Positions 13,571-44,151 of a stretch of 64,000 bases of DNA are shown one piece after another. This DNA comes from a candidate division FCPU426 bacterium (GTDB taxonomy: Bacteria; Oederibacteriota; PGYV01; Palsa-1178), in assembly GCA_963840035.1 (NCBI GenBank), contig CAWIXE010000002.1, positions 352,001 to 416,000 on the forward strand, given 5' to 3'. Position 1 is the stretch's first letter, and every line of letters begins with the position of its first letter. The notes beneath the pieces were generated by a model. The model was not told where the DNA came from. It worked only from the letters and a program-made list of their open reading frames with translations, and ran no database searches. Made by a program: the position numbers and the translations under genes.

Positions 13571-15643
13571 ATGCAATCAGGCAAAATGCCTATTAGAAAT
13601 GCCGATAACCCTATAGTAAAAACCACACTATTTATAATCAATATCATGTTTATTTGTATTTTTATTTTTACGAAACCGTTGTTTTCGTCAAATTTCGGTA
13701 CAAATACCGCGGAATTTTTGAAAATAAATCCGGAAGCAGCTCCCGCAGGCATGGGAGAGGCATATATTGCCGTTGCTGAAGGCACTAACGCGCTTCAGTA
13801 TAATGCCGCAGGACTGGCCTTTCTCGATAAAAGCGAAATAACCGCGACTCAGCTCCTTTGGTTTAATAACATAAACATGACCCATGTTGCATATGGCCAG
13901 CCGCTTGCTTATGGATTTGGCCTGGGCGCGAGCATACTATGGATAAATTTCGGAAGTTTTGATTCCACCGGAGGCGTGGCCTCGCCGATAGATATCCAGA
14001 ACGGAGTTTTTAACATCGGCGCGGGCAAAAGCATCGGCGATAATATCCACCTCGGAGTGAACCTGAGGGGGCTCTACGAGAATTTTATGAGCAGTTCGTC
14101 TTTTGGCTTCTCAGCAGACGCCGGCGCGCTTTTTTACCTCGGTTCAAGAAATTTTACGCTGGGATTATCCGCGAAGAACATGGGTTTTTTAACAGGCACA
14201 AATGATTCGCTTCCCGTGGAAGCCGGTATCGGGCTTGGTTTCAGGCTCTTTAACGGTTCTTTCGATTTTTTAAATGTGGATATCGATTACAGGAAAATTT
14301 TAAATACTGACAACCAGTACCTGGGCGCCGGGCTTGAGTATTATATCGCGCAGGTAGCAGCGCTCCGGCTGGGCTTCAGGTATAATAACGCGATGGAAGC
14401 AACAAAAATATCATTCTCGGACCTTTCCAGGCTGGTGCTTTTTTCCGCGGGCGCCGGCATAAATATTAATGATTTTATTTCCGCCGACTATTCCTTCACC
14501 CCCATGGGAGACCTGGGCTATGTGCACAGGGTCACGCTCAAGATGAAGTTCGGCGAATCAATTTATGAAAGAAGGCTCTCGGAGAAAAATGTGAAGGTCG
14601 AGCCGAAAGCCATAGAAGTGCCGCAGGTAACTGTCCAGGATGGAAATATAAAAAGTGTTTCTTTTAAGCCCAATGTCCCGGACCAGAACGTAAAGGAATG
14701 GACACTCGCTATCAAGACCTCTGACGGAAAGATAGTCAAGTCATTCTCCGGTATCGGTGAAGTGCCAAAGACACTGAATTGGGACGGCACGGACGCGTTT
14801 GGCAGGATATCAAAGGCTGATACCAATTTCATATTTGACTTTAAAGCCAAGAATGATGAAGGCCAGATAATAAAGACCATAGGACACATAGTCCAGCCGA
14901 AAAAGTTTGATTTCTTGAAGGACGAGGACAGGCGTTTTGTCCCGCTTAAAGGCGAGGAAATGCTTGTGGCTCCCGTGACGCTGCTGGTGTCGCCCAACGC
15001 CGAGGAAAGAAAACAGGTTCCGTTCCTGATGGTAAATAAAAAGATTAAGAAGGTAAAGGACTGGGAGTTCGCGGTATATGACACAAACAAGGCGCTGCTT
15101 AAAAAATTCACGGGGCAGGACATGATCCCGTCATACCTCGTATGGGACGGAAAGGATACATACGGCAATTATGTAAATGACCTTAAGACCTGCCAGTATG
15201 TGCTTTCAATAAACGGTACAGACGGTAAGAAAGCGGAGATCAGGGACAGACAGGTGGTAAGGGACGCGTTTGTAATATCGGCTAAAACAAGAAAATTGAA
15301 AATGGCAAAGAGGATATATTTTGAGCCGAATACCGTGGATATTGATCCGGAGATGCTGCCGAAGCTTGACGAACTTGCCGCGGAAATTTCGCAGTATAAG
15401 AATGTTCAGATATACATACAGGGCCACTCGAGCAGGGAAGGGGAAAACGACTATAATATCAAGCTCTCACAGGAAAGGGCAAAGACAGTCCTGCGATACC
15501 TTGTGGAAAAGTATAAAATTTCGCCGCTGTCGGTCACGACCGTAGGATACGGTTCTGCTATCCCTATAGACCAAAGCGATACCGAAGAGGCAAAAATGAG
15601 GAACAGAAGGGTTGAAATAATAATGATCGGTGAAAAACAATGA
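13571..15643 (+). CDS. PorV/PorQ-family barrel fused to two FlgD-Ig-like domains and an OmpA-like peptidoglycan-binding domain
   Basis: AEFLKINPEAAPAGMGEAYIAVAEGTNALQYNAAGLA (PorV-like N-terminus); DYSFTPMGDLGYVHRVTL; two W..DG.D..G modules; IQGHSS...NIKLSQERA...GYGS..P...NRRVEI (OmpA C-terminal). Start uncertain (13571 or later). Confidence 0.8.
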   Translation: MQSGKMPIRNADNPIVKTTLFIINIMFICIFIFTKPLFSSNFGTNTAEFLKINPEAAPAGMGEAYIAVAEGTNALQYNAAGLAFLDKSEITATQLLWFNNINMTHVAYGQPLAYGFGLGASILWINFGSFDSTGGVASPIDIQNGVFNIGAGKSIGDNIHLGVNLRGLYENFMSSSSFGFSADAGALFYLGSRNFTLGLSAKNMGFLTGTNDSLPVEAGIGLGFRLFNGSFDFLNVDIDYRKILNTDNQYLGAGLEYYIAQVAALRLGFRYNNAMEATKISFSDLSRLVLFSAGAGININDFISADYSFTPMGDLGYVHRVTLKMKFGESIYERRLSEKNVKVEPKAIEVPQVTVQDGNIKSVSFKPNVPDQNVKEWTLAIKTSDGKIVKSFSGIGEVPKTLNWDGTDAFGRISKADTNFIFDFKAKNDEGQIIKTIGHIVQPKKFDFLKDEDRRFVPLKGEEMLVAPVTLLVSPNAEERKQVPFLMVNKKIKKVKDWEFAVYDTNKALLKKFTGQDMIPSYLVWDGKDTYGNYVNDLKTCQYVLSINGTDGKKAEIRDRQVVRDAFVISAKTRKLKMAKRIYFEPNTVDIDPEMLPKLDELAAEISQYKNVQIYIQGHSSREGENDYNIKLSQERAKTVLRYLVEKYKISPLSVTTVGYGSAIPIDQSDTEEAKMRNRRVEIIMIGEKQ

Positions 15644-16731
15644 TGAGACAGTATAAAATAGCCGTGGCCGCGCTGTTTGCGCTTTTACTTATGTCGGCAT
15701 GCACCCAGATGAAAGAGGCAGGCGGTGATACGGCCGAGCATATTTTTAACATGGCAAATGAGGCCATCGCGCGCGGGGATGAAGCCGTAGCCATAGATTT
15801 GTTTTACAAACTTAATCAGGATTACGGGGCTTTTAAGAAGTACCGTGCGGATGTGTTATACAGGCTGGGTACGCTTTTATACAAGACTGAGCGTTACGAT
15901 GAATCCGAGAAAGTGCTATCCATGTTTGTTTCCAAGTTCCAGCAGGATGCGAGGCTGAAAAAAGCCTACGAAATGCTCCTTTACATTTATATGCAGGAGA
16001 CACATGACGAAGCTAAGGCTCAGAAAGTCCGCGACCAGTATGCCGGGAAATTTGGCAATAACCCCACATTAAAGCAGATAGACAAGACCATGACAGTACT
16101 CTCGGGCGAGACGCAGGAAGCTTCAGCCCTGCTGGCGCTTGACGCGGTAAACATCGGCATCATCGGTTCTGCCGCGGTTAACGGTTATGACAGGGAATTC
16201 TACCCGGTCAGGAATTATATACTTAAAAGCGTCAGGTCGCCGGACGGCAAATTCACGGTTGAAAAAAAGAAAAAGGCCGGCAATTATTATCTGTATATAG
16301 ACCAGCTGCCTGCCAAAGGCCAGCCCATACGCATCGATAAAAGTTCAGGCGGATACGCGCCGCAGTGGTCGTGGGATTCAAAATATGTGGTTTTCACATC
16401 CATGGACTGGGCGACTGACGAGCGCAGGGTCAGAATATATGACGTCAAAAAGAAAGTGGCCAGGGACCTCTTCAGCGCGCCGGGGCTTGAGCCGCTGCTT
16501 TGCATCTCGCCGGATTCTTCAAAGATAATTTTTACATATAACGGAAAGCTGTGGATTATGAACAGCAACGGCAACGGAGTATCGCTGCTTTCAAAGTCGA
16601 TGTCCGCTAAAAAAATGTGGATGATTGCCTGGGCAAGGGAAGGCGGCAGGATTATTTATTCAAATAAATCCGATAAGTCGCTTTATTATGAGTGCAGGCT
16701 TGGACGCAGGGAAATAGAGGCTATAAAATAA
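15640..16731 (+). CDS. Lipoprotein with TPR and TolB/PD40-like propeller repeats
   Basis: Lipobox MSAC; ADVLYRLG TPR; SPDGK, PQWSWDSKYVVF, SPDSSKIIF. Confidence 0.7.
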   Translation: MMRQYKIAVAALFALLLMSACTQMKEAGGDTAEHIFNMANEAIARGDEAVAIDLFYKLNQDYGAFKKYRADVLYRLGTLLYKTERYDESEKVLSMFVSKFQQDARLKKAYEMLLYIYMQETHDEAKAQKVRDQYAGKFGNNPTLKQIDKTMTVLSGETQEASALLALDAVNIGIIGSAAVNGYDREFYPVRNYILKSVRSPDGKFTVEKKKKAGNYYLYIDQLPAKGQPIRIDKSSGGYAPQWSWDSKYVVFTSMDWATDERRVRIYDVKKKVARDLFSAPGLEPLLCISPDSSKIIFTYNGKLWIMNSNGNGVSLLSKSMSAKKMWMIAWAREGGRIIYSNKSDKSLYYECRLGRREIEAIK

Positions 16732-16832
16732 GGATGTTTTTATACGGCCGGATTATGATTCCGGCGCGTCTAATAGGCAGCGGGAAAACTAAGCCTTAAC
16801 CCGAGGTATTACATCACAACACGGAGGTTTTT

Positions 16833-18686
16833 ATGAAAAAGATATTTGGATTAATGCTGGCCATGCTGGCGCTTGTAACACTGAATCCCGGTGTGTTTGC
16901 GTCTGTCGATGAGTATTCCAAAGCCGTCCAGCTGGACGGGAATAACGTGGTTGCCAGGTTTAATCTGGGGTTGGCGTACTATCAGGAGCAGAAATATGAT
17001 GACGCGGTAGAGCCTCTGCGCAAGTCGCTTGAAATAAACAGGGAAGACAAGTCCAGCCACGCGAAAGTTGATTTTCAGGCGGCGCAGCTGCTGGGAATAA
17101 TATTTTTTGAAAAGAACAATATTGATGAGGCCATAAACTTTTTTAAAAAAGCGGGGGAGATAAATCCTGCGGAAGGAAATAATTACTACTATATGGGGCT
17201 TGCCTATAAAAAATCCGGCAGAACGGATGACGCACTGAAATCATTCATTAAGGCCCTTGAAAACGGGGCGGACGATACCGCGGAGAATAATTTCCGTATA
17301 GGGCAGATATACTATGAAAAAAAGGAATATGGCAGCGCGATCGAATACTTTGAGAAAGTTACCGCGAAAAAACCTGACTTCGCCGACGCCAGGGAATACC
17401 TGGGCGATATATACGACAGGCGGGGTATGGCTGATAAGGCCGTGGAAAATTACACGCGCGTTGTCAGGGTCAACCCGGATAATATCCACGCGCAGTACCA
17501 GCTGGGGCTGAATTATTTCAAACAGAAAGAATATGACAAGATGATCGCGGCGTATAAAAAAACCATAAGCATAGACCCGAATTTCGCGGACGCCCATTAT
17601 AACCTGGGCATGGCATATTATTACAGAAACATGTATGAGGACGCCATTGCCGAGTTCCAGACGGCCATTAAACTTAACCCGAACGACGCTTCCTCTTACT
17701 CGCTTCTCGCGCAGACAAAGACCACGGCTTATGAGTTTCATAAGAATAAAGGGTCCACATTTTTAACGGAAGAAGATTATTTGCAGGCAAGGGATGAATT
17801 TCAGATGGCCCTCAATGTAAAACCGGGGGATTCCGACACACAGAAGTTCCTTGACAGGACAAATGAGTCGATAAGGTCGCTGATACCGGTGAAGCTTAAG
17901 GCGGCAAAAGACAACTTTGAGTCAAAAGATTACAGCAACGCGTACAATAACTGGGATTTTGTGCTTAAGGCCCAGCCGGATAACGGCGAGGCAAAAGAAG
18001 GGATGAGTAAAATTGAAAAGAATCTGTCGGAGTTGATAGCGGCAAGGGCTGAAAAAGCCGAGAAATTCGCATCTGAGGGCAAGCTTGCCGAATCAGTGGC
18101 GGAGTACGCTGATATTTTAAAGTTAGCCCCCAAGTCAAAGCAGGCGGCCTTAACCGCAAGAATGTCCGCTTTAATGACGAAGCTGCGCACGAAGGTAACC
18201 GCGCTGCTGACGGACGCGGACGCGGCATACGCGAAAAAATCCTACGCCAAGGCCTTAAACAAATATACTGAAATACTCCGTTACGAAGCAAATAACAGCC
18301 GGGCATTAAACGGCATTACTAAAGTAAACGCAAAAATTGACGCGGATAAGGAAAAGTACCTGGCTATAGCCAAGCAGAACAAGGCAAGCAACAGCGCAAA
18401 AGCCGTGGAGTATTATAAAAAGGTTGTACAGATGGACCCGAACAACGAAGAGGCGAACAAGGCCATCGTGAACATAACGGGAAAGCAGTCTTCCGTGTCG
18501 CTGGACGCGCAGAAGATAAAGTCCCTTTACTATGAGGGCGTGGACAAATATGTCAACGGCGAGGTAGAAACGGCGATTAAGGTTTGGAAAAAAGTCCTTG
18601 AAATGGACCCGAACCACGTGGAAGCAAGGAAGAACATTAAAAGGGCCGAAGAAAAACTATTGGCAATCAAAAGCCTGAGCAGGTGA
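16833..18686 (+). CDS. Periplasmic multi-TPR protein
   Basis: Signal peptide; many TPR motifs (ARFNLGLAYY, AHYNLGMAYY, DPNHVEA). Confidence 0.85.
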   Translation: MKKIFGLMLAMLALVTLNPGVFASVDEYSKAVQLDGNNVVARFNLGLAYYQEQKYDDAVEPLRKSLEINREDKSSHAKVDFQAAQLLGIIFFEKNNIDEAINFFKKAGEINPAEGNNYYYMGLAYKKSGRTDDALKSFIKALENGADDTAENNFRIGQIYYEKKEYGSAIEYFEKVTAKKPDFADAREYLGDIYDRRGMADKAVENYTRVVRVNPDNIHAQYQLGLNYFKQKEYDKMIAAYKKTISIDPNFADAHYNLGMAYYYRNMYEDAIAEFQTAIKLNPNDASSYSLLAQTKTTAYEFHKNKGSTFLTEEDYLQARDEFQMALNVKPGDSDTQKFLDRTNESIRSLIPVKLKAAKDNFESKDYSNAYNNWDFVLKAQPDNGEAKEGMSKIEKNLSELIAARAEKAEKFASEGKLAESVAEYADILKLAPKSKQAALTARMSALMTKLRTKVTALLTDADAAYAKKSYAKALNKYTEILRYEANNSRALNGITKVNAKIDADKEKYLAIAKQNKASNSAKAVEYYKKVVQMDPNNEEANKAIVNITGKQSSVSLDAQKIKSLYYEGVDKYVNGEVETAIKVWKKVLEMDPNHVEARKNIKRAEEKLLAIKSLSR

Positions 18687-21075: not shown

Positions 21076-22175
21076 ATGAAAAAAGTGGACCTATCCCAGG
21101 TAAAGAGGGTACTTATAATCAGGCACAAAGCCATTGGTGATATTATACTTGTCACTCCCTTTATCAGGGCCATTAAAAAAGCCCTCCCGGACGCTGAAAT
21201 TGACATGCTGGTGGAGCCCATGGGAATAGAAATACTTAAGGGCAATCCGTACCTTGCCAATGTCGTTGTTTACGAAAAAAACAGATTGAAAAAAGCCAAT
21301 CCTTTTGTGAAAATAGTAGAAACAGTGCGTTTTTATATGAAGCTGTTTGGGCGCAGATATGACCTTGTATTTGACCTCTGGGGCAACCTGCGGACAGCCC
21401 TTATGAGTTTTTTGACAGGCGCGAAATACAGGGTGGGATTTCATTTCCGCATCAGGAAATACCTGTATAACATTATAGTTGTCCCGGACGAGCCCCCGAA
21501 ATACAACGCATATTTTCACATGGACCAGCTTAAGGCCCTTGGGATACCGGATGACGGCGAGAAAGCGGATTTTTACATTTTTCCCGGAGATATTGCTTTC
21601 GCTGATGATTTCTACAGGGGCATCGGAGTAAAGGCGGGGGACACGGTATTCGGTTTAAACGGCGCGGGCACATGGAAGACAAAGCGCTGGCCGGAGCATA
21701 AATTCGCGGAACTCGCGGATATTCTCATTAAAAAACACAGCGGGTGTAAAATAGTCATCATATGGGGGCCGTCAGAAAAACCAATGGCCGAAAAGATATA
21801 CTCCATGATTAAAGGAGACAGGTCCGGGGTGTTTTTAACTCCGCCGACTACCTTAAAACAGCTGGGAGCGGTTCAGAAAAGGATGGATGCGTTTATTTCA
21901 AATGACGGGCGCCCAACCACCTGGCAATCGCGCTTGACGTCCCTTCGGTTACGGTTTTTGGGCCGACAAATTACATATCCTGGGTGCCTGCCGGCAATAA
22001 ACGGCACCTGGAAGTTCACAGCGCGCTTGCCTGCGCGCCGTGCGATAAGATGCAGTGCCCCACGGAAACCGAATGCATGGAAGGTATCATGCCGGATGCA
22101 GTCTTTGACAGGGTCGGGCAATTACTGGAAAACATAAAATATGCTAAAATTCCGACTAAAAAAACGGAGGTGTAA
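21076..22175 (+). CDS. GT9 heptosyltransferase-like glycosyltransferase; -1 frameshift at ~21908
   Basis: LIIRHKAIGDIIL, KRWPEHKFAELA. Adding one G at GGG 21907-09 restores NDGAPNHLAIAL...FGPT and the C-terminal CAPC...CME. Confidence 0.85.
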
Positions 22176-22176
22176 C

Positions 22177-22839
22177 ATGGTTGAAGTTGACATTGACAAG
22201 ATGCTCGCGAAAACTGAGGAGAAGGAAAAAAAGGAAAAGCAAAAGAAAGCGATCGTACTGTATTCCGCCATTGCCGCCGCTGTTGTCATAGCGGGTGCCA
22301 TAGCTTTTATCGCCACGGGAATAGTAATAGGCGACAAATCGGAAAGTTATTTCCCGCTGGAGCCGGGCAGGAAAATGATCTATAACCAGAAGGGCAAGAG
22401 CCCGGAAGAGTGGCAGATACAGGAAAAGTCTGAGAATGTTTACGGGTATGAATGTTCTGTTATGAATAAAATAGACAAAGGCAACCTGCTTTTAAAGCAG
22501 GAGTTTTATACTGTGGATGATAAACAGGGCATTGCCAGGCTCGCGTATTCTGAGAATTACGGCCAGAAAGTAAAAGATGTATTTAAAATACTGCCGTACA
22601 GGGTAAAGTCAGGCATGTCTTTTGACGCGGGTACAATAAAGGGCAATGTGATCAAGGCTGTCGTGCTTGATAAGGAAATAATGTCAACCCCGGTAGGCGA
22701 GATTGACGCATACAGGGTTGAATATAAGGCGCCGCCGTATTATGATACGACGGTATGGTATGCCAAAGGGGTCGGCGTTGTAAGGGAGATCAATAACAGG
22801 ACAGCAGAAGAAATAAGCCTGATCAGCGCCGGGGAATGA
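22177..22839 (+). CDS. Membrane-anchored hypothetical protein
   Basis: GGAGG RBS; one TM helix; YFPL..G, TPVGEIDAYRV and WYAKGVGVVRE motifs of an uncharacterised beta-rich family. Confidence 0.7.
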   Translation: MVEVDIDKMLAKTEEKEKKEKQKKAIVLYSAIAAAVVIAGAIAFIATGIVIGDKSESYFPLEPGRKMIYNQKGKSPEEWQIQEKSENVYGYECSVMNKIDKGNLLLKQEFYTVDDKQGIARLAYSENYGQKVKDVFKILPYRVKSGMSFDAGTIKGNVIKAVVLDKEIMSTPVGEIDAYRVEYKAPPYYDTTVWYAKGVGVVREINNRTAEEISLISAGE

Positions 22840-22963
22840 CAACCCGTTTAAAAGAGGGATGGATGGAAAATGTAAGGCGGGAAAAAGGAACCAGAGGATA
22901 TTTCGTCAGGCAGACCGCATGTTGCGGTGCGTGCCTTTATGCCATGTCACGGAAAAAAACCTA

Positions 22964-25900
22964 ATGAAAAAAATCCGCCGGTCACTCACTTTATCCTTTA
23001 TTGCGGTTATTTATACGATTATACTGCCGCTGTTATACGCGGAACCGGCAGTTGTTCCTGCAGTGACCGCGGAAGCCACCGCCGGTGTTACAGCCAATAC
23101 GACTCCGGCAGTGACCGCGGAAGCCACCGCCGGTGTAACAGCCAATACGCCTCCGGCAGTGACCGCGGAAGCCACCGCCGGTGTAACAGCCAATACGCCT
23201 CCGGCAGTGACCGCGGAAGCCACCGCCGGCGTAACAGCCAATACGCCTCCGGCAGTGACCGTACCTGTAATTGCCAACATGGTTGCGGTTGAAAAAGGGC
23301 CGGAAAACCTCAAGGCGCAGGTGTTTGGCATGAGGGTTAACCTGACATGGGAGCCGGTCCCAAAATCCGATTCGGCTGTAACATACACCATATACAGGGC
23401 AACCGGGCCGGACGAGGATTTTATCAGGGTTAATAAGGATGACATAATCACGAACGCTTTTGTCGACTCAAAGGAAACCAGCATCATTTCCTTGATGAGC
23501 GGGATTACTTATTTTTATAAAGTGGCTGCCATAATAAACGGAAGGGAATCCGCGGATTCGAACCTGGCTTCAGCCATACCCGAAGGAATTCTGGCGCCGC
23601 CGGATGAGGTCACGGCTGTTTCGAAAGTGTCCGCTATATTGTTAAAATGGGCTGAGCCTGAATCCTCAGGAAAGCTTGGCCTGTCCGGGTTTAATATTTT
23701 CCGGGCAACGGAAGGCGTCATGGAGAGGATAAATCAGGCCGTAGTAAACGCTTTTGAGTATCCGGACAACAATCTTACCAACGGTGTTAAATATTATTAT
23801 TCGGTCCAGTCCGTGGATTCCGCCGGAAATACTTCTGAGATGTCTTCGCCTGTCTTCGCGATGCCGTTTTCCATAATATCGGAACCGGCAAACGTTTCTT
23901 TTACCGCAGCTTCGTCCGAATCAATAAGGGTCATGTGGGAATCGCCGTCAAACCAGGGGACTTTCGGGATTGCCGGTTACAACATATACAGAAGCACGGT
24001 GCCGGGATATTTTCCCGATAAGCCTTTAAACATAAAACTTTGGAAGGAAATAAAAGGCGAGGATGGCAGGGTTTTTTATCACGACAATGTGGTAAACAGC
24101 GAGAATCCGCCGGCGCCGGGTTTTAATTATTTTTACAAAGTTACCGCTATGGACTCGGCAGGCAACACTGGCGCGTCGAGCGCGGTTGCGTCATTTACCA
24201 TTCCCGTGCTTGAAATTAAACAGTCAGGCACCCTTTCGCAGGACATATCAGAATACGGGCTGCCGCCTGATTCCAGGCTGACACTGGCAGGAAAAAAATC
24301 ACTGGGTATGAGCTATGAATACTTCTGGTATAACAATCCGGAAAACAAGTCGGCCCCCGGGAAATTTGATATCACCCAGAAGCTGAAACTAAAACTCAAC
24401 GGCAACATCGGCAAAAGGATAAATGTTGACGTCAACTATGACGAAGAACTTGCCATGCAGACGGATGAATACACCAAAATAGCCATAAGCTATGCGGGCG
24501 AAAAGGAAGAGGCCCTTCAGGAAGTTTCTTTCGGAGACATGTCCCTGGATTTCCCGGCCACCAGGTATGTCAGTTATTCGCAGACGCTCTTTGGCATAAA
24601 GGGAAAAGTTAAGATCGGTGACAAACTGTCGATCACTGGGATCGGCGCGCAGATAAAAGGCATAACTGAAATCCAGAGTTTTAAGGGAAACATGCGCGAA
24701 AAGGAAGTAAATGGCAAGCGCGGGGTGGATATTTCAGACGTGTCATACAGCCCAAGGGTCTATTATTATATAACAAAGGAACCCGGCGTCAGGATAAGGC
24801 CGGGTTCACTTGTGATATACACGGATGACCAGAATGCCAATACTTTTGACGGGAATACCGTAAAAATGCCGAATAACGGGGGCGATTTTGACCCGAAATA
24901 TTCAGGTATTGATTATATCGTTGATTATGAGGAACGTGTCGTGAAATTCAATATAGCAATCTCCTCAAGCACTGTGATTGCCGCCGGATACATCCAGGAA
25001 GACGGCACTTACGTCGGGTTAAACCCCGACGGGTCATTTGATTTTGTAAACGGCCTTACTTCCGAGTCGCGTGGCTATACAAATTCTTCGGCGCACCTTC
25101 TGCAAAATGGCGTAAGCGCGAGCAATAATCTTGGGGATTTGTCCCACATGGTAGTCAGCTATTATTATATGAGTGATCCGCTTATATACAACCCGAAGCT
25201 TGACCCTGATTTTGTCATCAGGATAGAATCCATTGACGGGTCGAAAATAATCAACATACTCCGGCCGCAGGACCCCGGCGTGGAAGACCAGTATGAAATT
25301 GACACGGACTTCGGAATACTGAAATTCAAGAGCCCGTTCCCGTTTGCCGCCGGACAGCCCGTGGTAACACCGCCTTATTACAACACAAACGGCAATGAGG
25401 CGGATTGTTATAACGTCCTGGACGCGAACAGGCGTTCCAATTACAGGATACATCTGGAATATAAATACTATGTTTCGTCATATAGGCTTGACCATTCGCC
25501 GGTTGTTTTCGGGAGTGAAAGGGTTGAACTAAACGGCGCAATCCTGAAAAAAGATGTGGATTATTTTATCGCGTATGAGACTGGCGATATAAGTTTTTCG
25601 GAGAACAGGAAGAAAGAAATTACATCAAGCTCTGATGTGCGCATTATTTATGAATATTTCCCGTATATGCAGTCCTTTTCATCGAACTTAATAGGCGGAA
25701 GGGTAGATTACCAGCTGCTTGACAACCTCAAGCTGGGTTTAACAGGGTTATATAAGGCTGTGAATGCCGGCTCAACCCTGCCTGACGCGCGTTCCACCGA
25801 GACTTCGCTTGCCACACCGTATAGTTCCATGGTCTTTGACGGGGACATAAAGTTCAATGTAAACAAGGAAACTATGAGCGCTATCATTAATTCGCTTCCC

Positions 25901-29377: not shown

Positions 29378-32300
29378 ATGAAAAGGTTTATGATTATGGC
29401 AGCGGTTTTACTGGCGGCCGCGGACATGGCGCTTGCGTTAAACGCGCCAAGCAATATTGCGATATCCTCGTCGGGGACTGATATTACGCTGCAGTGGTAC
29501 ATGCCCGTAACCAAGACAGGCGATAAGGCCATACAGTCTTATAAGGTTTACCGCGCCACATACGCCAATGTAAATGACATAAACTGGAACATCATAGGGT
29601 CAGAAGGAAAGTCAGCGGATGTGGATACATATACACTTACACTCAACACATACGTTGACGCCGGGGCCAATACCTCCGCGGGTTACTACTACAGGGTCCA
29701 GGCAGTCGATAGTGACTCTATAGGCGGAACTCTTACGTCTGCTATTGTGTCATACCCATACGGCCCGCAGTCATTGACTGTCACGGCGTATAACGCAAAG
29801 ACGGCGCTGGAATGGGACACGGGATATGACGCGCAGATAACCGGATACAATATTTACAGGTCCACATCTCCGGCAATTCCCGACCTCGTGAAAATAGCAA
29901 GTTCTGCATCAGGAAAATACACTGACCCGTCAGTTTATAACGGCAGGCAGTATTTTTATTCTGTCAGGCCTTATCTGGGTACTGTTGAAGGCTCCATGTC
30001 GTTAACAAAAAGCGTGGTGCCGTTCGCACCGCCCTATTCTCCCGTGCATGTTTCATCCATTGTTTCAGTAGGAGGACAGGTAACCCTAAACTGGGCAGGC
30101 CAGACACTGGCCGGGACTTTTCCTGTGTCATGCTATAACATATACAGGACAGGCGGAGGCGGGCCCGCATTCTCAGATGTGACTTTTACCGCCGGATACA
30201 CGGAGGCATTGACCGCAGGAGAAATATACACATATTCGGTATCGGTGTCAGATTCAATGGCAAATACATCGCTTCCGTATACTTTAAAGGTGTACGTACC
30301 GGGGCTGCCGTCAAAACCACAGGGATTTATCATATCTGATTACCGGTCGTTCGGGGCGTCCCTGACATGGGCCGCGAATGACCCACTTGAAGGGGTAACT
30401 TTTTACAGAATATTCAGGGATTCCTTACAGGTGCAGATGAACGCGCTTAATTACGCCAGCGACACGGGCCTGACTGAAGGAAATACATATACATATTATG
30501 TAGTGGCTAATAACGCAGCTGGTGACAGCGTGGCCTCAGACAGCGCTGTGATTACGGCAAAAGCGTCACCGCCAACAGATGTTACAGTGGTTAAAGGGCA
30601 GCCCGGGGAACTGGCGGTTACGTGGGCGGGCGTCCCATTCACGGAAAATGTGACAGGGTATAATGTCTACAGGGCTGAACTGCCCGGGGCTATTAATTAC
30701 TCGTCGCCATGGGCGGTTACGGAGACTTCTTCATTCATTGATTCCGGATTAAACACGGCCGCGTCATATGTCTACGCGGTGTCCGGTTTTACGTCGATGG
30801 AAGGGCAGTTTTCTTCTGAAGTTTCCGGAAAGGCAGTCACGCTTCCCGCCGACGTTACCGGGCTTTCGCTCCAGCCAAACACTAATTATATAAACCTAGC
30901 CTGGGATTTGCCGGACGTGTCATACGAGACAAGCGCTTATAATATTTACAGGGCTACCGACAGCGGCGCGGAATACTCAAAGATGGGCACGACTGTTTCC
31001 GCATTTTATCAGGATAGAAACCTTTTAAATACAATTGATTACTATTATAAAATAACGTCGCTGAATTATTACGGCGAAAGCACTCTGACCGCTGCCGCGG
31101 CGCAGCACGCCATGACATCACCGGCAGCGGCGCCTGATGCGCCGCGTAACCCTGTTTTAGTTTCAACCGGGGACGGAAAAATAAGCATTAACTGGAGCGC
31201 GGCGCCGCCGGGCAGTCTGGTTACAGCTTACAATGTATACAGGAGCATGGCGCCGGGAGTATATGCTGATGCGCCGGTCGGAGTAACCCTTACAACCGCT
31301 TCATTTACCGACACACCGCCGCTGGCTGACACGGTTTATTATTATACCGTTAAGGCGGTAAGCACAGGCGAAAGCCCGGCTTCCGCTGAGGTTTCCGGCA
31401 AAGCGTACATAAAACCGGGCAGCCCCAGGAACCTTCAGCTTGATTATTTGAACAGCCAGGTAATGCTTACGTGGGAAAAGCCGGTTTCTGATGGCACGTA
31501 TCCATATCAGTATAAGATATACAGGGGAACTTCTGTCCTTACGATTGCGGCGGCGGGAATCACAACGACAAGCCTTAAAGTATTTGACGGGGCTGTAAAT
31601 ACCATGACAGCGTCATATTATTACAGGGTCAGGTCTATTGACACGCAGGGCCATGAGGATTCAGGGACGGATTATACCGTCATTACGATTTCATCACCCG
31701 TATTTCCGCCTTCGGTACTTGTGGCAAAACCGGGTCCCGGCAGGGTAATGCTTGTATGGAGAAAAGTAAGCCCGGATTATTATAATATATACAGGAGGAC
31801 CGTGGGCAGCCTTACGGAGCGCCTCATGCGGTAAATGTGGATTTTGGCGCAAGCGTATTTACGGATACTGACGTGATAACAGGTACTGAATATTTTTACT
31901 GCATTGCGGCCTCTAATTTTGCCGGGGAAGGGCCAAAGTCAAACGAAGCTTCAGCAGTGCCGTATATCGCGGCTAAATTGCCGGTGCAGTCAAACATAAC
32001 CGCATCGGTTGTGAATAAAAAAGATGTGCAGCTTGGCTGGAAACCGGCGGTTGCGGGAGATTACGCGCTGAATTCGTATGTTGTTTTCAGGAGTTCGGAC
32101 GGCGGCGGCCTGTACACCAGGCTTGATGAGATAGCGCACAATCCTTTAACCACGGATTACAGCTACCTTGACACGGCCACATCGTGGGGCAATGATTATA
32201 TTTACATGGTTAAAGTATCGGATGTCATGGGAAATACCGATACAGCCTACGGGATTGCAAGCGTCAGCCTGCAGAAACCTGAAAATAAGCTCAGGGTATT

Positions 32301-32589
32301 TAAAAATATGATCAATACCGGCAATTCCGAAAAGGTCGTAATAAGGTATTTTGTCGTGCAAAAGGGCATGGCCCGCGTGAGGATATACAGCTTAAGCGGC
32401 GAATTTATAAATGAGCTTGCCAATGACCGCTTAAGCGTTAATTACAGCGTTGACAACCCCTATGAGAGCCCGGATATTTCCTGGGACGGAAAAAACAGGA
32501 GCGGGCAGAGGGTGGCTTCAGGAGTCTACCTAATCACCCTTGAAACGGACGCGGGACGCGTGACAGAGAGGGTTGCGGTTATAAAATAA
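29378..32589 (+). CDS. Secreted multi-FN3 protein with C-terminal FlgD-Ig/CTD-like domain; frameshift at ~31805
   Basis: About 10 FN3-like repeats (W...YNIYR...YYY.V). Adding one G at 31804-06 joins the two ORFs. C-terminus IYSLSGE...WDGKN..G..VASGVYLI...RVAVIK. Confidence 0.8.
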
Positions 32590-36103: not shown

Positions 36104-37161
36104 CTTGAATTCAAGGTAAAAGTGCAACACTTCTGTTAAAATCTTTATGTCGAGTAAAGAATACAGAAGGAGGTTGCACCAATGAAATTATACAAGCATT
36201 TAGGCATAGAAGAAAGAGCAAAAATTGTTATTTTACAGGACCAAGGGTTCACAGTTGGTGAAATAGCAGCTGAGCTTGGAAGACACAGATCCACGATACA
36301 CAGAGAAATAACTAGGAACAGCAACATAGAAACCGGAGAATATGTTGCTAGAGATGCAAACACATCATACAGACGAAGATTAAGTGTCCCCCAGGGCAGA
36401 ATAAGGGATACAGCAATAAAGTCGTATGTGATAGATAAACTTAAAAACGGTTGGTCTCCTGAAAGAATTTCAGGAAGGATAGCGGAAGAACTACCGGGGA
36501 AAAGTATTAGTACTGAAACAATATACATGTTTGTATATAAAGAAGAGCCGGGATTTAGAGGATGTTTAACTAGGCACCACATGAAAAGGCACTTAAAAGG
36601 TCAGAGAAAGACGCATACAAAAGGTCGTATACCCAATAAAATATCAATAGAATTAAGGCCTAAACAAATAGACGAACGTAAACAGGTCGGGCATTGGGAA
36701 AGCGACACAATGGCTGGATTACAAAAGAAAAATTCAGGACTAACCTTTACAGTGGAAAGAAAAACACGGTTAACGAAGATATATAAGTTAAGAGTAATAA
36801 CCGCAAGGCATAACAGAAGAAACATAATGAAATCATTACGAAGTGTGCCTGAAGGCGTTCGGTTAAGCATAACTTATGACAACTGAAAAGAAAATGTTGA
36901 GCACGAAAAGATTAATAAACAGATAGGGTGTAAATCATACTTTTGCCATGAAAAAAGTCCCTATGAAAAAGGCACGGTTGAGAACACAATAGGATTGGCG
37001 AGAAGGATATACCCAAAAGGCACAGACTTTGATATGATAAGCTCCGGCAGGATAAAAGAACTTGAAAATTGGCTGAATAATTTACCAAGGAAATGTTTGG
37101 GCTGGAAAACTCCAAACGAAGCATTTAACAAGATGTGTTGCACTTAAACATTGAATGTAGC
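36104..37161 (+). mobile_element. IS30-family insertion sequence (1058 bp), 3-bp target duplication ATT
   Basis: Imperfect terminal IRs (ATTCAAGGTAAAAGTGCAACAC / GTGTTGCACTTAAACATTGAAT); ATT at 36101-03 and 37162-64; A-rich composition. Confidence 0.85.
36182..37147 (+). pseudogene. IS30 transposase with an in-frame TGA at 36884-36886
   Basis: HTH IAAELGRHRSTIHREI, WSPERI, GHWESDT, TYDN*KE (conserved DNGKE); same frame continues EKGTVEN...LNNLPRKCLGWKTP to TAA at 37147. Confidence 0.9.
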
Positions 37162-38684: not shown

Positions 38685-39161
38685 TTGGTTGATTTAAAAG
38701 TTTTTGCGCGCAAGCTTCGTAAAGACTCAACAGACGCAGAGAAGAAACTGTGGCAGCATATAAGGGCAAAACAACTATGCGGATTTAAATTTAGAAGGCA
38801 ACAGCAATTGGGGCCATATATAGCGGATTTTTATTGTTCTGAGAAAAGGCTGGTTGTGGAATTGGATGGGGGACAACATGCGGACAATAGAAATGATGCA
38901 GAAAGGGATACTTATTTAGAAAGTAAAGGTATAAGGGTAGTAAGGATTTGGAATAATGATATATTTGCTAACGTGGAAGGTGTGCTGGAATATATAAACA
39001 TTCTGCTTGAAGAAAGGGTTGATAGTTATAGGTATTTTAAGAAACGGTGTGTTAGGCGCAAGGGTGGGGTTGGTATTAAGTTTTCAGCCGCTGCAACACC
39101 CCCATCCCGGCCTTCCCCCTTGGAGGGGGAAGGGGAAGAACCGCACAAGGGCCGAAAATGA
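38685..39161 (+). CDS. DUF559 (Vsr-like) endonuclease
   Basis: ARKLRK.ST.AE..LW, FRRQ...GPYIADFYC....LVVELDGGQH, RD.YL...G..V.R.WN. Confidence 0.9.
   Translation: MVDLKVFARKLRKDSTDAEKKLWQHIRAKQLCGFKFRRQQQLGPYIADFYCSEKRLVVELDGGQHADNRNDAERDTYLESKGIRVVRIWNNDIFANVEGVLEYINILLEERVDSYRYFKKRCVRRKGGVGIKFSAAATPPSRPSPLEGEGEEPHKGRK
39096..39136 (-). repeat. Right copy of the 41-bp inverted repeat
   Basis: Translated within the DUF559 C-terminus as TPPSRPSPLEGEG. Confidence 0.85.
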
Positions 39162-39910: not shown

Positions 39911-39961
39911 ACCGGGAATACCAGCCAATAACCAATAACCGGATAGACATTAAATAATGCG

Positions 39962-40244: not shown

Positions 40245-40273
40245 TTGACATAAAAAATGTAATATGTTATCTT
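40245..40273 (+). promoter_or_regulatory. Sigma70 promoter with extended -10
   Basis: TTGACA-N17-TATCTT, with TG preceding the -10. Confidence 0.7.
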
Positions 40274-40347
40274 AAATCACTTGCACAGAATTCAGAGTTG
40301 CAACGTGTTTTTACATATTGGAATAGCATACTTATCAGGAGGCTATT

Positions 40348-42462
40348 GTGCGTAAAAGTGTATTCCTGTTTATTTGTCTGTCTATATTTATTTGTGGCAT
40401 TAATTCCACAGGGTATTCGGCGCCGTTAGATGACGCTATGGCAATAACATGGGAAACTGTGCAGGAGCCATTTTTTAATAAGTGGAATCCTTACGGAGTA
40501 GGGGCCAGGGCCATGGGCATGGGAGAGGCTTTTGCCGCCATTGCGGACGATGCCGCGGCTGTTTATTACAACCCGGCGGGTTTAGCGCAGATGGACCATA
40601 ATGAGGTTCATTGGACAGGTGGCAGTTTATATAAAGGTGTTCCGTATACGAATTTTGCATCATTTAACATGTCGTTAGGCGGCCAGTATTTTGCCGTTTC
40701 ATACCTGAAACTTTACCATCCCGTCGGAAGGTTTCCGGATAAAATTTCGATACCGACAGGAGGCGCTGGATCAGGCGGTGCAATTTTTACCGCATGGCCG
40801 ATGCTTGTGCCTGGTAATGCAACGTACGCCAACTGGTATGGGGACCTTGATCGTACATGGCAGGTATATCTCGGGGAGGCTTACAGAAGCTACATAAACC
40901 TTCCTTTCCAGGAAAATCAGATAGTGCTTACATATTCAACGCCGCTTACTGCTGATAAATCATTTGATTTCGGTTTGAACGTAAAATACCAGTTCACGGA
41001 CGCGGACGCCAAGAAAGCGCTTGGAACACCTTATGATGCATGGGCATGGGCCATTGACCTGGGCTTCCTTTACAAGCTGCGCATCATTGAATTTCTGAAG
41101 GATTTTAACATCGGCATAATGCTGCGTGACGTATCCGGAAGGGTCAAGTACTTTACCGGCATGGAAAAGCCTATTTATTTTACATCAACTGTAGCGCTCT
41201 CCATGAGGACTACGGAACTTATAGAAAAAGAAGTTACCAGTTTTTCAGCCGACTGGGACGCGGTCAATGATAACGGTGTATTCCAGGCAGAGAAAAACAG
41301 GGTGAAATTCGGTTTTGAACAGTGGTTTATGGACAGCCACTTTGCGGTACGCGGCGGGTTGATATGGCCCATGAACCAGGCGCCGTGGAGGCTGAGCATG
41401 GGTATTTCCGCAAGGTACCTGCTCGGCATAGACTACGCTTATGTGCGCGGCATTCCTTTCGATAAGAATGGAACGGATGGCGCCGACGGCGAAGGGGACA
41501 GCCACTGGGTGTCGCTATACTGGATGTGGGGGAAAGTACAGAGAAAGCTTCCTACACCGGATGTGTTTGCGGCTGTTGAGCCCATATCTTTCGCCCCGAA
41601 AAACGGCGAAACAGTCATATTCAAGCTTAACGCTTCTTCGCCTGCGGGCATAGACAGGTGGGCGTTAAACATACTTGATAAAAACAATAACCTTGTAAAA
41701 ACATATGTGGACATCGGAATGCCGCCTTCACAGATAGTCTGGAACGGCACGGACAATAAGTACCAGCTTTTAAATGACGGCGAGTATACCTTTATATTTG
41801 AAGCCACAGACAAACTTGGCAGCACTTCGTCAACGCCGGTACAGACAGTAAAGATATATACGCCGGTTATCGAGGCTGTTAATAATGAGGCGCTGAAGAA
41901 ATTAAGGCAGCTCTTAAATGAAATTAAGGACAGGGACTTAAGGGAAGATAACGCTGAAATGGCAAACGCCAAGACGCAGTTAGAGGCTTTAAAAAAGTCA
42001 AAGGAAAAACCGACGCCGGTACCGCCTCCGGTCGCAGGAACAATACCGGGATATGATAATATCGCGGCGGCGGGCACGCAGCCAAAGCCATCAACGGCTA
42101 CGGCAAGCCCTATATCCATAGTGGGATTCCCAAACATAGATTCAGGCGCTATTAGGTCTGCATACATTTCAACGCTTGCCGACGGGCAGAGGGAATTCTC
42201 CATGGACTACATGACCGATAACACGATACCGAAATATGTCATGAAGGAAATGGGGCTTATGGTCAAGTCCATCGCTGAAAGCCTCGGGATGTCAGTCGAC
42301 CGTATCGGAGTAAACGCGGTTTACGGGGACAATCAGAACCTGAACCTTTCAGTACCGATAGCACAGGCACAAAATTATATGCGCGGCACAATCACGGTTG
42401 AGCAGATGCTCCGCGGCGCGAATATAATGTTAAATAATGAAGCAATTTATCCTAATTTCTAG
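40348..42462 (+). CDS. PorV/FadL-like barrel fused to an FlgD-Ig-like domain and an unknown C-terminal domain
   Basis: GVGARAMGMGEAFAAIADDAAAVYYNPAGLA; IDYAY...SHWVSL; SFAPKNG...W.L.I.D....V......WNGTD.....DGEY. Confidence 0.75.
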   Translation: MRKSVFLFICLSIFICGINSTGYSAPLDDAMAITWETVQEPFFNKWNPYGVGARAMGMGEAFAAIADDAAAVYYNPAGLAQMDHNEVHWTGGSLYKGVPYTNFASFNMSLGGQYFAVSYLKLYHPVGRFPDKISIPTGGAGSGGAIFTAWPMLVPGNATYANWYGDLDRTWQVYLGEAYRSYINLPFQENQIVLTYSTPLTADKSFDFGLNVKYQFTDADAKKALGTPYDAWAWAIDLGFLYKLRIIEFLKDFNIGIMLRDVSGRVKYFTGMEKPIYFTSTVALSMRTTELIEKEVTSFSADWDAVNDNGVFQAEKNRVKFGFEQWFMDSHFAVRGGLIWPMNQAPWRLSMGISARYLLGIDYAYVRGIPFDKNGTDGADGEGDSHWVSLYWMWGKVQRKLPTPDVFAAVEPISFAPKNGETVIFKLNASSPAGIDRWALNILDKNNNLVKTYVDIGMPPSQIVWNGTDNKYQLLNDGEYTFIFEATDKLGSTSSTPVQTVKIYTPVIEAVNNEALKKLRQLLNEIKDRDLREDNAEMANAKTQLEALKKSKEKPTPVPPPVAGTIPGYDNIAAAGTQPKPSTATASPISIVGFPNIDSGAIRSAYISTLADGQREFSMDYMTDNTIPKYVMKEMGLMVKSIAESLGMSVDRIGVNAVYGDNQNLNLSVPIAQAQNYMRGTITVEQMLRGANIMLNNEAIYPNF

Positions 42463-42471
42463 GAGTGTTAT

Positions 42472-44151
42472 ATGAAAAAAAGGGTTAGCATCTTACTTGC
42501 GGCAGTATTACTGTCCGCGGCAACAGCTTTTGGGGGAGCTTTTGATAAAGGCGGAGTCCTGGGTATTGGCGGAAGGGCTACCGGCATGGGAGACGCATTC
42601 GGCGCCATAGCCGATGACGGCAGCGCTGTTTACTGGAATGCCGCGGGACTAACGCAGCTTGACAGGTCTGAACTGAACATATTTCTTGGCCCGCTTTTAA
42701 ACGGCAAGGAGTATTATACATTCCTTTCGTTTGGCGCGCCGTTTTTTCAGGATACGGCATGGCAGCTTTCTGTAATGTCGCTGATCCACAATGACAGCAA
42801 TAACACCAAGGAATTTACCGTGTATGGAAGTTTTGCCACAAACCTTAATCTCGAGAGGACTTTCTCAGTAGGAATAAATGTAAAATACCTTAATTACAAC
42901 TCCGCGGCGTCATTCCCGTCTTCTTCAGGAAACCTGCAGGGCCTGGCACACGGTCTCGGTATTGATATGGGAGTTCTTTACCAGATACCGCTCCCTCAGT
43001 GGGGAAAGAAACTGAACTTCGGATTATTCATACAGGATCTTGATACGAACCTTTACTGGTCTGGCGGATCCAGCACAGAGCAGATCCCGACAGTATTTAA
43101 AGTGGCATCAGCGTATTACCTCGAGGATAATCTCGTGGTATCCGCTGACTTTGATTTTTTTAAAGATTTGAATATAAGCGGACAGCCGCTTGAAACACCC
43201 ATATACGATTCGGTTAATAATGTTACAATAACGGCATTGACCCCGCAGGAAGACAGGATCCATGTGGGAGTAGAGGGCTGGTTCTTCAAAAAACACCTCG
43301 GACTGCGCGGCGGTTATACGGCGTTTGCGACCATGCAGGGAAGGTTCACCGGCGGTGTTACATATAAGGAAGATACATGGCAGGTCGATTACGCTTACAT
43401 AGGCCACGCAGAGCATCTTGGCGACTCACACAGAATAAACGTCGGGCTAAGATTCGGACAGCCGAGGGATCAGATTAGAGCTGTCAGCATCGTGCGTCCG
43501 CCAAAGGAACTCAAAGCATATCCGGCGAACACGGCTATTAATCTTACCTGGGAACCAAATGACGACCCTAACATAACGGGATATGCCATATACATGAGCA
43601 AATCGCCGGGGACCAGATATATACCCGTGGCAAAAAGAATAAAGGAAAATTACGTCACAATTGACGGGCTTCAGAACGGTACGCGCTATTATTTTGTGGT
43701 TGCGGCAATCAATAACACCTATCCGGCTGTTGAAAGCGCCTATTCAAATGAAGCCTCCGCTGTTCCGGCGCCTGTCGTACCCGGCACGCCCGAGGTATTC
43801 CCGATAGCGCAGACCAAGCCAATTGAGAAAAACGGCGTAGTGGACATCCCGTGGGGTTCCATGCCGCCGCCGAGGATAGCCGGCTACAATATTTATATTT
43901 CCGAGACATCAGGTAAGGGTTATGTAAAAGCAAACCCTGCTCCGATAAAAGATACGCACTATACGGTAAAGGGCCTTGAGGTCGGAAAGAAATACTACTT
44001 TGTCATGACATCAGTTACAAACGATACTCCGCCAATAGAGTCAAAGTTCTCAAGGGAAGTTGTTAATATAGCGAAACCCGAGAGCGCGCTTGGCGCGGAT
44101 GCAGCGCAGCCTGCGGCAGGCAATCAGAATAAGCCGGCAGGACAGCGGTAA
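42472..44151 (+). CDS. PorV-like barrel fused to two FN3 domains
   Basis: GIGGRATGMGDAFGAIADDGSAVYWNAAGL; VDYAY.....LGDSHRINV; two FN3 repeats (GY.IY.S...G..Y, GL..G..Y.FV). Confidence 0.8.
   Translation: MKKRVSILLAAVLLSAATAFGGAFDKGGVLGIGGRATGMGDAFGAIADDGSAVYWNAAGLTQLDRSELNIFLGPLLNGKEYYTFLSFGAPFFQDTAWQLSVMSLIHNDSNNTKEFTVYGSFATNLNLERTFSVGINVKYLNYNSAASFPSSSGNLQGLAHGLGIDMGVLYQIPLPQWGKKLNFGLFIQDLDTNLYWSGGSSTEQIPTVFKVASAYYLEDNLVVSADFDFFKDLNISGQPLETPIYDSVNNVTITALTPQEDRIHVGVEGWFFKKHLGLRGGYTAFATMQGRFTGGVTYKEDTWQVDYAYIGHAEHLGDSHRINVGLRFGQPRDQIRAVSIVRPPKELKAYPANTAINLTWEPNDDPNITGYAIYMSKSPGTRYIPVAKRIKENYVTIDGLQNGTRYYFVVAAINNTYPAVESAYSNEASAVPAPVVPGTPEVFPIAQTKPIEKNGVVDIPWGSMPPPRIAGYNIYISETSGKGYVKANPAPIKDTHYTVKGLEVGKKYYFVMTSVTNDTPPIESKFSREVVNIAKPESALGADAAQPAAGNQNKPAGQR

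Follow-up and report, generated by a model that had tools for sequence, protein, structure and literature searches.

Can a bacterium outside the FCB group export proteins through a type IX secretion system (T9SS), and what would power such a machine if the usual motor is not found? The question is raised by a window of 64,000 nucleotides (the whole stretch analysed: assembly GCA_963840035.1, contig CAWIXE010000002.1, positions 352,001 to 416,000; G000:C2:352001-416000 in our numbering), which belongs to a genome, G000, of 3.46 Mb in 3 contigs that is 98.3% complete and 0.5% contaminated. An original prediction made from the letters alone had placed a divergent T9SS-like apparatus here, with an SprA-like translocon, PorV-like barrels and secreted proteins ending in a C-terminal domain (CTD), the tag of T9SS cargo. 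Sugar-degrading enzymes and surface proteins of this organism are likely exported by a differently powered type IX machine, because a pore, 38 carriers and about 100 tagged proteins are present but no standard motor or tag-cutting enzyme was detected. With a probability of about 0.68, an SprA-type pore and PorV barrels would export about 100 CTD proteins, many of them kept anchored on their carrier, with release probably driven by a TonB/Tol-type motor and not by GldKLMN. The main feature, which the original prediction missed, is a phylum-wide expansion of PorV carriers, many of them encoded directly behind a cargo gene.

The features of the system in the window are listed below; gene order was compared across 8 loci of the same order and 21 sprA loci in all, relatives beyond the order included.

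5778..10383, + strand: GH9 glycanase with a Thr/Pro stalk and a C-terminal CTD, frameshifted into 5778-7268 and 7168-10383 (Pfam GH9 and CelD_N; CTD profile E 1e-24)
10603..13059, + strand: secreted protein with an N-terminal domain of no named family, a PT/T-rich stalk and a CTD (CTD profile E 7e-23)
13571..15643, + strand: PorV barrel, two FlgD/CTD-like Ig domains and an OmpA/Pal peptidoglycan-binding domain (NF033709 107.9 bits, cut-off 90; OmpA E 5e-20)
15640..16731, + strand: lipoprotein with TPR and a partial TolB-type propeller (lipobox LMSA-C; TPR and PD40; the profile matches TPR, then TolB chains)
16833..18686, + strand: periplasmic TPR protein of 617 aa, a candidate scaffold (TPR repeats)
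22141..22839, + strand: single-transmembrane protein directly 5' of sprA (orthologue in 7/8 same-order loci; no informative Pfam or PDB match)
22964..29356, + strand: SprA/Sov-like translocon of 2130 aa (signal peptide, low-complexity linker, three FN3 domains, predicted 36-strand barrel with extracellular inserts)
29378..32589, + strand: FN3-repeat protein with a CTD (FN3; TIGR04183 21.3 bits; 21-nt gap after sprA; frameshifted near 31790)
40348..42462, + strand: PorV-like barrel, FlgD/CTD-like Ig domain and a C-terminal domain of no known type (NF033709 68.1 bits, below the cut-off of 90)
42472..44151, + strand: PorV barrel and two FN3 domains (NF033709 93.0 bits, fn3; stops 15 nt short of flgF)

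Comparison of profiles and of predicted folds indicates that the open reading frame (ORF) at 22964-29356, which terminates in a barrel-type Phe, encodes a true SprA homologue. It gained 188.2 bits over four stretches against TIGR04189 (cut-off 200, just missed) and is the sole sprA locus found by a TIGR04189 search of the genome. A single-sequence PDB search returned FN3 proteins only, and SprA was recognised after a profile built from 32 of 36 homologues was used, which matched Flavobacterium johnsoniae SprA (6h3i) at E 7e-94 with profile positions 381-1754 aligned to residues 139-1896. AlphaFold2 (AF2) models were made as two overlapping fragments owing to a 1200-aa limit (residue numbering starts at 22859), one covering residues 1000-2165 (pLDDT 81.8, pTM 0.48) and the other residues 425-1060 (pLDDT 71.3, pTM 0.49). 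The top four Foldseek matches of both fragments were SprA chains (E 5e-36 and 1e-23), the next best standing at 4e-6 and 1e-3, and VIA aligned model residues 1-1166 on SprA 807-2401 across 984 residues (Z 16.5, root-mean-square deviation 10.6); MtrB equals SprA in VIA Z, but across only 459 residues. Counted by eye on the two overlapping fragments, which do not form a closed barrel, the long barrel strands come to 7+4+25 = 36, the number of the F. johnsoniae SprA barrel (PMC10994853). The SprA-like nature predicted for this protein of about 2130 residues is thus borne out by the profile and the fold matches alike.

Where F. johnsoniae SprA has a periplasmic SkpA-binding segment at its N-terminus, the present protein carries three FN3 domains, which are presumably periplasmic; one Skp gene was found in G000. 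Jelly-roll domains alignable with CBM11/CBM30 (Z 13-14, root-mean-square deviation about 3) are found in the extracellular inserts (about residues 1040-1545 counted from 22859). SprA is present in 58 of the 61 genomes of the phylum survey, a plasmid search for it gave no match, and a pattern scan of named genomes returned one weak locus, labelled Riflebacteria.

With reference to the host, its RpoB shares 75-76% identity with three proteins that carry the label Ca. Goldbacteria/Goldiibacteriota, 58% with a pair under FCPU426 and 55% with a single Firestonebacteria-labelled one; a further match, at 72%, is labelled Omnitrophica. SprA homologues at 44% and 47% identity are labelled Goldbacteria and Spirochaetia, respectively. 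On these markers we take the host to be Ca. Goldbacteria, which lies outside the FCB group, in agreement with the non-Bacteroidota host that had been proposed. Goldbacteria have been placed beside Firestonebacteria and Elusimicrobia and described as cellulolytic, with genomes rich in GH5/8/9/44 and CBM11 (PMC7031533).

Carriers and cargo

The genome holds 38 PorV-family ORFs, 27 of which exceed the NF033709 cut-off, and none of those scanned reached the strict PorV or PorQ equivalog cut-offs. A barrel profile of 45 sequences (37 of the 38 G000 barrels, 7 from relatives and the query) aligned end to end with PorV (6h3i_F) at E 9.6e-34, compared with 7e-11 for CymD and 2e-8 for the best FadL chain among the channels for hydrophobic molecules. 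A FadL/TodX identity of the barrels was rejected, both on PF03349 Toluene_X (18-19 bits, cut-off 29.7) and on the PDB ranking, which favours PorV. The three PorV-like barrels of the original prediction are accordingly retained, one of them being below the NF033709 cut-off. Every one of the 61 phylum genomes had PorV matches, the copy number ranging from 8 to 41 or more. A C-terminal tail of more than 80 aa is carried by 22/38 of the G000 carriers, and the tails identified are TPR, FN3, FlgD-type Ig or OmpA.

The three carriers of the window are well kept among relatives: orthologues of 13571-15643 are 53-71% identical in 6/8 same-order loci, those of 40348-42462 are 63-75% identical in 6 same-order relatives and those of 42472-44151 are 75-85% identical in 5. 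The FN3 part of 42472-44151 shows 30% identity to the N-terminal FN3 region of SprA (E 4e-10). As a guess, this conserved PorV-FN3 protein may be the carrier that resides at SprA. Elsewhere in the genome, a tail-less PorV at G000:C2:65239-66183, just past the ATP synthase genes, has an apparent orthologue that ranks first among the PorV matches of most same-order genomes, and is a candidate housekeeping carrier. At G000:C2:330761-332420, an ECF-sigma-like gene and a membrane protein with a CTD-like end directly follow a PorV gene.

Cargo was sought first with TIGR04183, of which G000 has 51 matches, 35 exceeding the cut-off. A CTD profile, seeded with 44 C-terminal matches after one 38-aa frame was dropped, converged on 102 of 5535 ORF tails (a simple longest-frame set), two of which are PorV tails, leaving 100 CTD proteins; reversed tails gave 0/5535 matches, and 102 of the 111 domains found with the profile lie at a C-terminus. 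Among PDB entries a 31-row version matched the PorU CTD best (E 5e-10), followed by FlgD (2e-9), PorZ and the CTDs in 8glj/8glk. The C-terminal Lys motif is found in 80/100 CTD proteins and, by a crude rule, signal-like N-termini in 79/100. Together the CTD and PorV genes account for 11% of the genome.

Carrier and cargo genes are paired to an extreme degree: of the 38 PorV genes, 22 lie immediately behind a CTD gene of like strand, a position shared by 47 of the remaining 2861 genes that are not CTD genes (p 8e-28). The remaining 78/100 CTD genes have no adjoining carrier gene. It can be deciphered from the domain content that the paired and the glycanase-type cargo differ, since none of the 18 PorV-paired cargo proteins scanned has a glycoside-hydrolase Pfam domain (the matches being CARDB, Big_1, ice-binding, propellers, S8 and one CBM9/malectin), and 26 of the 33 scanned members of the Thr/Pro-stalk, glycanase-type CTD group have GH, lyase, esterase or CBM domains. 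The latter count supports, genome-wide, the earlier suggestion that glycanases are export cargo. Glycanase-type CTDs are depleted of cognate PorV when defined by motif (1 of 22 paired CTDs versus 22 of 78 orphan CTDs, p 0.02) and also in a 39-row glycanase slice of the CTD tree (1/39 paired versus 21/61, p 1e-4), although that slice is paraphyletic, was drawn by eye and is weaker than the motif test. In this quick tree, 63 of 97 branches are open; one starred clade of 6 rows consists mainly of five PorV-paired CTDs, each of which has a PorV-TPR fusion as its partner.

The only glycanase-type member directly upstream of a PorV gene is 10603-13059, which precedes the PorV-Ig-Ig-OmpA gene and has an orthologue in 6/8 same-order loci. 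In F. johnsoniae, orphan type B substrates use one common shuttle (PMC12618676), and by analogy the PorV-Ig-Ig-OmpA protein, adjoining as it does the only paired glycanase-type member, would be the best candidate for a shared glycanase carrier. Co-folding of the 13571 barrel with the 10603 CTD scored 0.50 (best control 0.01) and is rated weak, this mark being reached by 116/157 solved and 2/215 mismatched pairs, of which 18 solved pairs and both mismatches are all that score 0.60 or less. Contact agreement was at least 83% and partner pLDDT at least 79; similar complexes have already been solved, and the result may reflect likeness to them. The N-terminal domain of 10603 gave no Pfam or PDB match, and GH26 appeared only as a 0.83 lead among Atlas neighbours. 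At 10603-11960 it forms a conserved domain of about 430 aa whose Atlas neighbours are clusters without a name, mostly from Actinomycetota, possibly a new glycoside hydrolase family.

All three secreted proteins that had been predicted to end in CTDs do lie in the window, but 7168-10383 and 10603-13059 are upstream of the region first delimited (13571-44151), and the third, 31837-32589, is the 3' piece of the frameshifted FN3-CTD gene. This piece is the only direct TIGR04183 match among the CTD proteins of the window (21.3 bits, cut-off 23). Before the GH9 gene, positions 1-5598 hold a run of secreted CBM9, CBM11 and CIA30-like proteins which, with C2:332569-348518 shortly before the window, forms a glycanase cluster of about 30 kb that ends at the PorV-OmpA gene.

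Gene order around sprA and neighbouring genes

The PorV-OmpA gene and the lipoprotein gene lie upstream of sprA in 6/8 same-order loci (in one the contig ends, and G058 has no barrel there). The lipoprotein gene 15640-16731, which overlaps the barrel gene by 4 nt, is kept in 7/8, and of 20 relatives, 11 (five from beyond the order) have a homologue of the TPR gene 16833-18686 no more than 20 kb from sprA; both the TPR and the TPR/PD40 proteins of the original prediction are therefore present. Directly after sprA, all 8 same-order relatives have the FN3-CTD gene as a single ORF of 954-1089 aa, and it follows sprA on the same contig in 29/58 SprA genomes, several others being split across contigs. 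Its position 21 nt behind sprA suggests that the two are co-transcribed. The second PorV pair (40348 and 42472) follows miaA in 5 same-order loci and runs into flgF in all 3 that reach that far. By eye, sprA of relatives outside the order lies a few genes from a divergent lptF/lptG-like pair in 10/12 loci, and in four genomes outside the order it is downstream of skp-like and lipid A synthesis-like genes.

Four genes of the window are frameshifted relative to their relatives, namely GH9-CTD, GT9, FN3-CTD and flgH, the sites being 7216-7262, 21909-21996, 31786-31798 and 47003-47057, all within 48 kb. One ORF of 1154 aa in relative G032 covers both GH9-CTD frames, and the simplest reading of the frameshifts would be assembly indels. 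We regard lacI, an O-antigen-ligase-like gene, GT9, mutL, miaA, an IS30 remnant and a radical SAM pair as neighbours and not as parts, several of them being syntenic in the order. The truncated IS30 transposase (36182-36886) and a DUF559 gene (38685-39161) are missing from the same place in relatives.

The organism had been called flagellated, which is not borne out. Genes for the basal body, the hook and FlgK (flgF-flgK) and for MotAB are present (window 44167-52577 and G000:C2:1051324-1064525), but a search that was positive in four control genomes turned up no flagellin/FlgL domain in this genome of 98% completeness, and the fliC, fliD, flgL, fliS and fliW-like ORFs of relative G026 had no match in G000. 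As no filament genes were found, flagellation is unproven. A flagellin N-terminal domain occurs in 9/61 genomes of the phylum; in G006, a genome of 100% completeness, the porV-porV-flgF order recurs and flagellin is likewise without a match, and G026 has a second, divergent flagellar cluster with flagellin (FlgG 39% identical). The flagellar cluster of the window begins 15 nt after the highly conserved PorV-FN3 gene (42472-44151). The T9SS-like set is independent of flagellation status.

Energy for release and rival explanations

GldM, GldN and GldL_N gave no match in G000 or in any of the 61 phylum genomes, there being no genome known to hold these families among those searched. GldK exceeded its cut-off of 350 in 0/61, with only FGE-domain matches (27-35 bits in G000, 89 bits at best in the phylum), and three FGE lipoproteins were rejected as GldK, their neighbours also being unrelated. 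A PorU sortase (peptidase C25) was not found in G000 by a search that was positive in 7/61 relatives; PorP/SprF (PF11751) had no match in G000, with no control genome positive either. No clear SprE/PorW was seen, the TPR proteins scoring 39 (16833-18686), 104 and 130 bits against a cut-off of 250. In a topology scan for GldL/GldM-like genes, 2 of 1970 adjacent pairs fitted the shape and neither was convincing by eye. The statement that the window has no GldK/L/M/N or PorU agrees with the absence of a match among the 52 window ORFs scanned, and the genome-wide check proposed with it gave the same outcome for GldL/M/N and PorU, and for GldK apart from the FGE domain. The Gld blanks are not proof of absence, since the control panel held no genome over the Gld cut-offs.

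What motors the genome does possess can be read from its four MotA/ExbB genes, which lie in flagellar motAB, beside a TonB-dependent receptor-like gene and in two further loci.

G000:C2:1329528-1343156: eight-gene PorV-linked Ton operon (CTD cargo, PorV-Ig, TPR lipoprotein, ExbB, ExbD, ExbD, TonB-like, Ig-OmpA-like)
G000:C3:78759-85217: second motor locus (TPR of 989 aa, barrel of 566 aa without a Pfam match but with a TonB-box-like motif, ExbB, ExbD, TonB/TolA-like)

In the PorV-linked operon, ExbB is 84-90% identical within the family, and 15 of the 21 loci examined have the full run of seven genes that begins with PorV. By hhalign, the 13571 barrel protein corresponds to the PorV-Ig of this operon (100%) fused to its Ig-OmpA protein (98.8%). 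The Ig-OmpA-like protein keeps an N-terminal motif that we take to resemble a TonB box. A Ton-type motor thus appears to be wired to a PorV carrier in this lineage, probably via the operon's own tether. The full-length TPR orthologue of the operon (E <1e-100) was found in 26/61 genomes, 23 of the 58 with SprA among them; the ExbB-ExbD-ExbD-TonB set was dropped as a general energiser, and it cannot be the phylum-wide engine because 35/58 are without it and the TonB-box-like motif is on its own Ig-OmpA protein. The second locus is widespread in the phylum, with the barrel in 15/16 such loci examined, and PorV is directly upstream of it in G001, G009 and G028.

As judged from sequence and models, the system very likely works as a T9SS translocon with carriers, and we infer its course as follows. 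Cargo would be carried over the inner membrane by Sec, as the signal-like N-termini of 79/100 suggest, and by analogy to F. johnsoniae, in which loading is energy-independent (PMC10994853), the CTD would go into SprA, where a PorV docked at its lateral gate would offer the loops to which the CTD binds. The carriers may be specialised: the 22 directly behind a cargo gene would serve mostly adhesin-like proteins, and the glycanases, almost all orphans, would likely share a few conserved carriers, with 13571 PorV-Ig-Ig-OmpA the best candidate. Since no PorU was found, the tag is probably neither cut nor exchanged for lipopolysaccharide, so that carrier and cargo would remain as a surface complex tethered to peptidoglycan by an OmpA tail or by the TPR/propeller lipoprotein; the type B logic of cargo, cognate shuttle and PorE would thereby be rebuilt from type A tags and PorV barrels. 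Release is the weakest step. A Ton/Tol-type motor pulling on the periplasmic tails of the carriers is tentatively favoured as its energy source; a lack of any dedicated motor is a rather unlikely arrangement, a Gld-like motor diverged past recognition an improbable one, and some other source more improbable still. One published view takes PorE for a fusion of CpoB, TolB and Pal, possibly operated by a protein like TolA or TonB (PMC12204202), and this fits a release role or a purely envelope-tethering role alike.

Several observations weigh against this proposal. Both AF2 models are fragments with pTM of 0.48-0.49 and contain no closed barrel with a lateral gate. The CTD profile strongly matches FlgD Ig domains (E 2e-9), and such domains also occur inside carrier tails, so some of the CTDs may be ordinary Ig domains. 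Overall co-divergence of the 22 PorV-CTD pairs was not significant (Mantel rho 0.12, p 0.13). Release in F. johnsoniae depends on SprE as well as on the Gld motor (PMC10994853), and no protein here could be clearly recognised as SprE; the Gld searches had no positive control genome. To this are added the 35/58 SprA genomes without the full-length TPR orthologue of the Ton operon, and the barrel of the second motor locus, whose look-alikes are commonest in Bacteroidota, for which reason that locus need not serve SprA.

Three other explanations were weighed with the same evidence. Export may be motor-free, each cargo loading on a fresh cognate PorV at SprA and leaving by diffusion as the next empty carrier takes its place; since a carrier would serve a single time, as a lasting anchor, it would need no recycling. 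The energy-independent loading in F. johnsoniae, the lack of a motor gene near sprA in 21 loci, the 35 SprA genomes without a PorV-linked motor, the large number of carriers and the report of Melioribacter and Ignavibacterium with only SprA, PorV and Plug (PMC11705866) all speak for it; yet in F. johnsoniae the CTD has a buried surface of about 1850 square angstroms and stays trapped when energy is not supplied (PMC10994853), and with 78/100 CTD genes lacking an adjoining carrier, secreted glycanases would need turnover. We hold it to be somewhat unlikely. Less probable again is a T9SS of nearly canonical make-up, in which divergence would hide GldK/L/M/N, SprE and PorU from profile searches. 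SprA itself is slightly below its own family cut-off, the Gld searches are uncontrolled and the three FGE-domain lipoproteins match GldK weakly, but SprA, PorV and CTD are all still readily detected, the GldK matches are confined to the FGE domain among unrelated neighbours, neither GldL/GldM-shaped pair convinces, and the C25 search works in relatives and finds nothing in G000.

The least probable of the three is that the PorV-family barrels act chiefly as tethers of the envelope or as channels for small molecules, of FadL or Tol-Pal type, with SprA serving a few CTD proteins or another function. The OmpA/Pal, TPR and TolB-like parts do recall Tol-Pal, as does the CpoB-TolB-Pal reading of PorE (PMC12204202), the FadL family is matched at E 1e-8 to 1e-11, and 16/38 PorV genes have no CTD gene directly upstream. 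Against this, the PorV match is better than that of FadL by more than 20 orders of magnitude, the gene pairing is extreme, and about 100 CTD proteins, many of them polysaccharide hydrolases, need an exit. Three outcomes had been named beforehand as fatal to the original prediction, and each failed to appear: the large protein has a predicted SprA-like fold, the barrels side with PorV and not FadL, and the genome is Goldbacteria-like, with no GldL/M/N or PorU detected. The preferred reading remains that of an SprA pore with PorV carriers and, more tentatively, a Ton/Tol-type release. A wider form of it, in which a non-FCB phylum runs a simpler and possibly ancestral T9SS of one SprA, dozens of cargo-displaying PorVs and TonB/Tol motors or none, with no Gld or PorU, is a possibility that falls short of even odds; if true, the Bacteroidota T9SS would be a later build in which GldKLMN and PorU were added to an older pore-plus-carrier core.

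Comparison with known systems

The system is classed as a T9SS variant, the motor and sortase of the canonical family having either failed to appear or being beyond demonstration. Proteins of many candidate phyla already bear PorV-family or type A CTD labels at NCBI, and the single parts are for that reason not unseen. No account of SprA/PorV/CTD export in Goldbacteria, FCPU426, Firestonebacteria or Elusimicrobia was found in the literature, supplements and most subscription papers aside, and the term T9SS is absent from the main text of the Goldbacteria paper (PMC7031533). With the Bacteroidota translocon (F. johnsoniae; PDB 6h3i, 8gl6, 8gl8; PMC10994853) the present one shares a colinear SprA, 36 predicted strands and one sprA per genome, as well as PorV-family barrels and type A-like CTDs with the C-terminal Lys motif (80/100). 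Unlike it, there is no detectable GldK/L/M/N, PorU or PorP/SprF, SprA has N-terminal FN3 domains, the host is outside FCB, and 38 PorV paralogues, 22 with C-terminal tails (TPR, FN3, Ig, OmpA), stand in place of one shared PorV.

With the type B system of PorP/SprF and PorE (PMC12618676, PMC9143113) it shares a carrier gene directly downstream of the cargo gene, orphan cargo dependent on a shared carrier, and a TPR/propeller lipoprotein and OmpA domain adjoining a carrier; the carriers are, however, PorV-family and not PorP (no match to PF11751), and the tags are type A-like. PorE is a lipoprotein of TPR, propeller, CRD and OmpA domains that binds the carrier PorP (PMC9143113). Its four domains are in one protein, whereas here TPR and a partial propeller are in 15640 and OmpA is fused to the 13571 barrel via two Ig domains, FlgD-type Ig taking the place of the carboxypeptidase-regulatory-like third domain; the two genes look like a rearranged PorE tether. 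The FadL/TodX/CymD channels are distant barrel homologues (E 7e-11 to 2e-5) from which the present barrels of about 290 aa differ in aligning end to end with PorV and in being paired with CTD genes.

The nearest precedent is a report that two Ignavibacteria genera hold SprA, PorV and Plug but no further components (PMC11705866). As in Melioribacter and Ignavibacterium, translocon parts are present here and other T9SS proteins were not found; those two are FCB members, however, and the report on them is a BLAST survey without mechanism, carrier count or cargo analysis.

T9SS was found only in Bacteroidetes in the survey that supplied the TXSScan component list (PMC4793230), its genes are said to be absent outside the FCB phyla (PMC11285876), all type A tags are said to use one PorV (PMC12618676), and the Gld motor is said to drive the one energy-requiring step (PMC10994853). 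The present lineage contradicts the FCB-only statement outright and appears to contradict those on the single PorV and the Gld motor. It could provide a likely export route for the Goldbacteria cellulases, described without one in the consulted text of PMC7031533, together with many candidate carrier-tag pairs for surface display. Set beside the Bacteroidota machine, it is a natural minimal system in which to ask what the motor is for and how T9SS originated.

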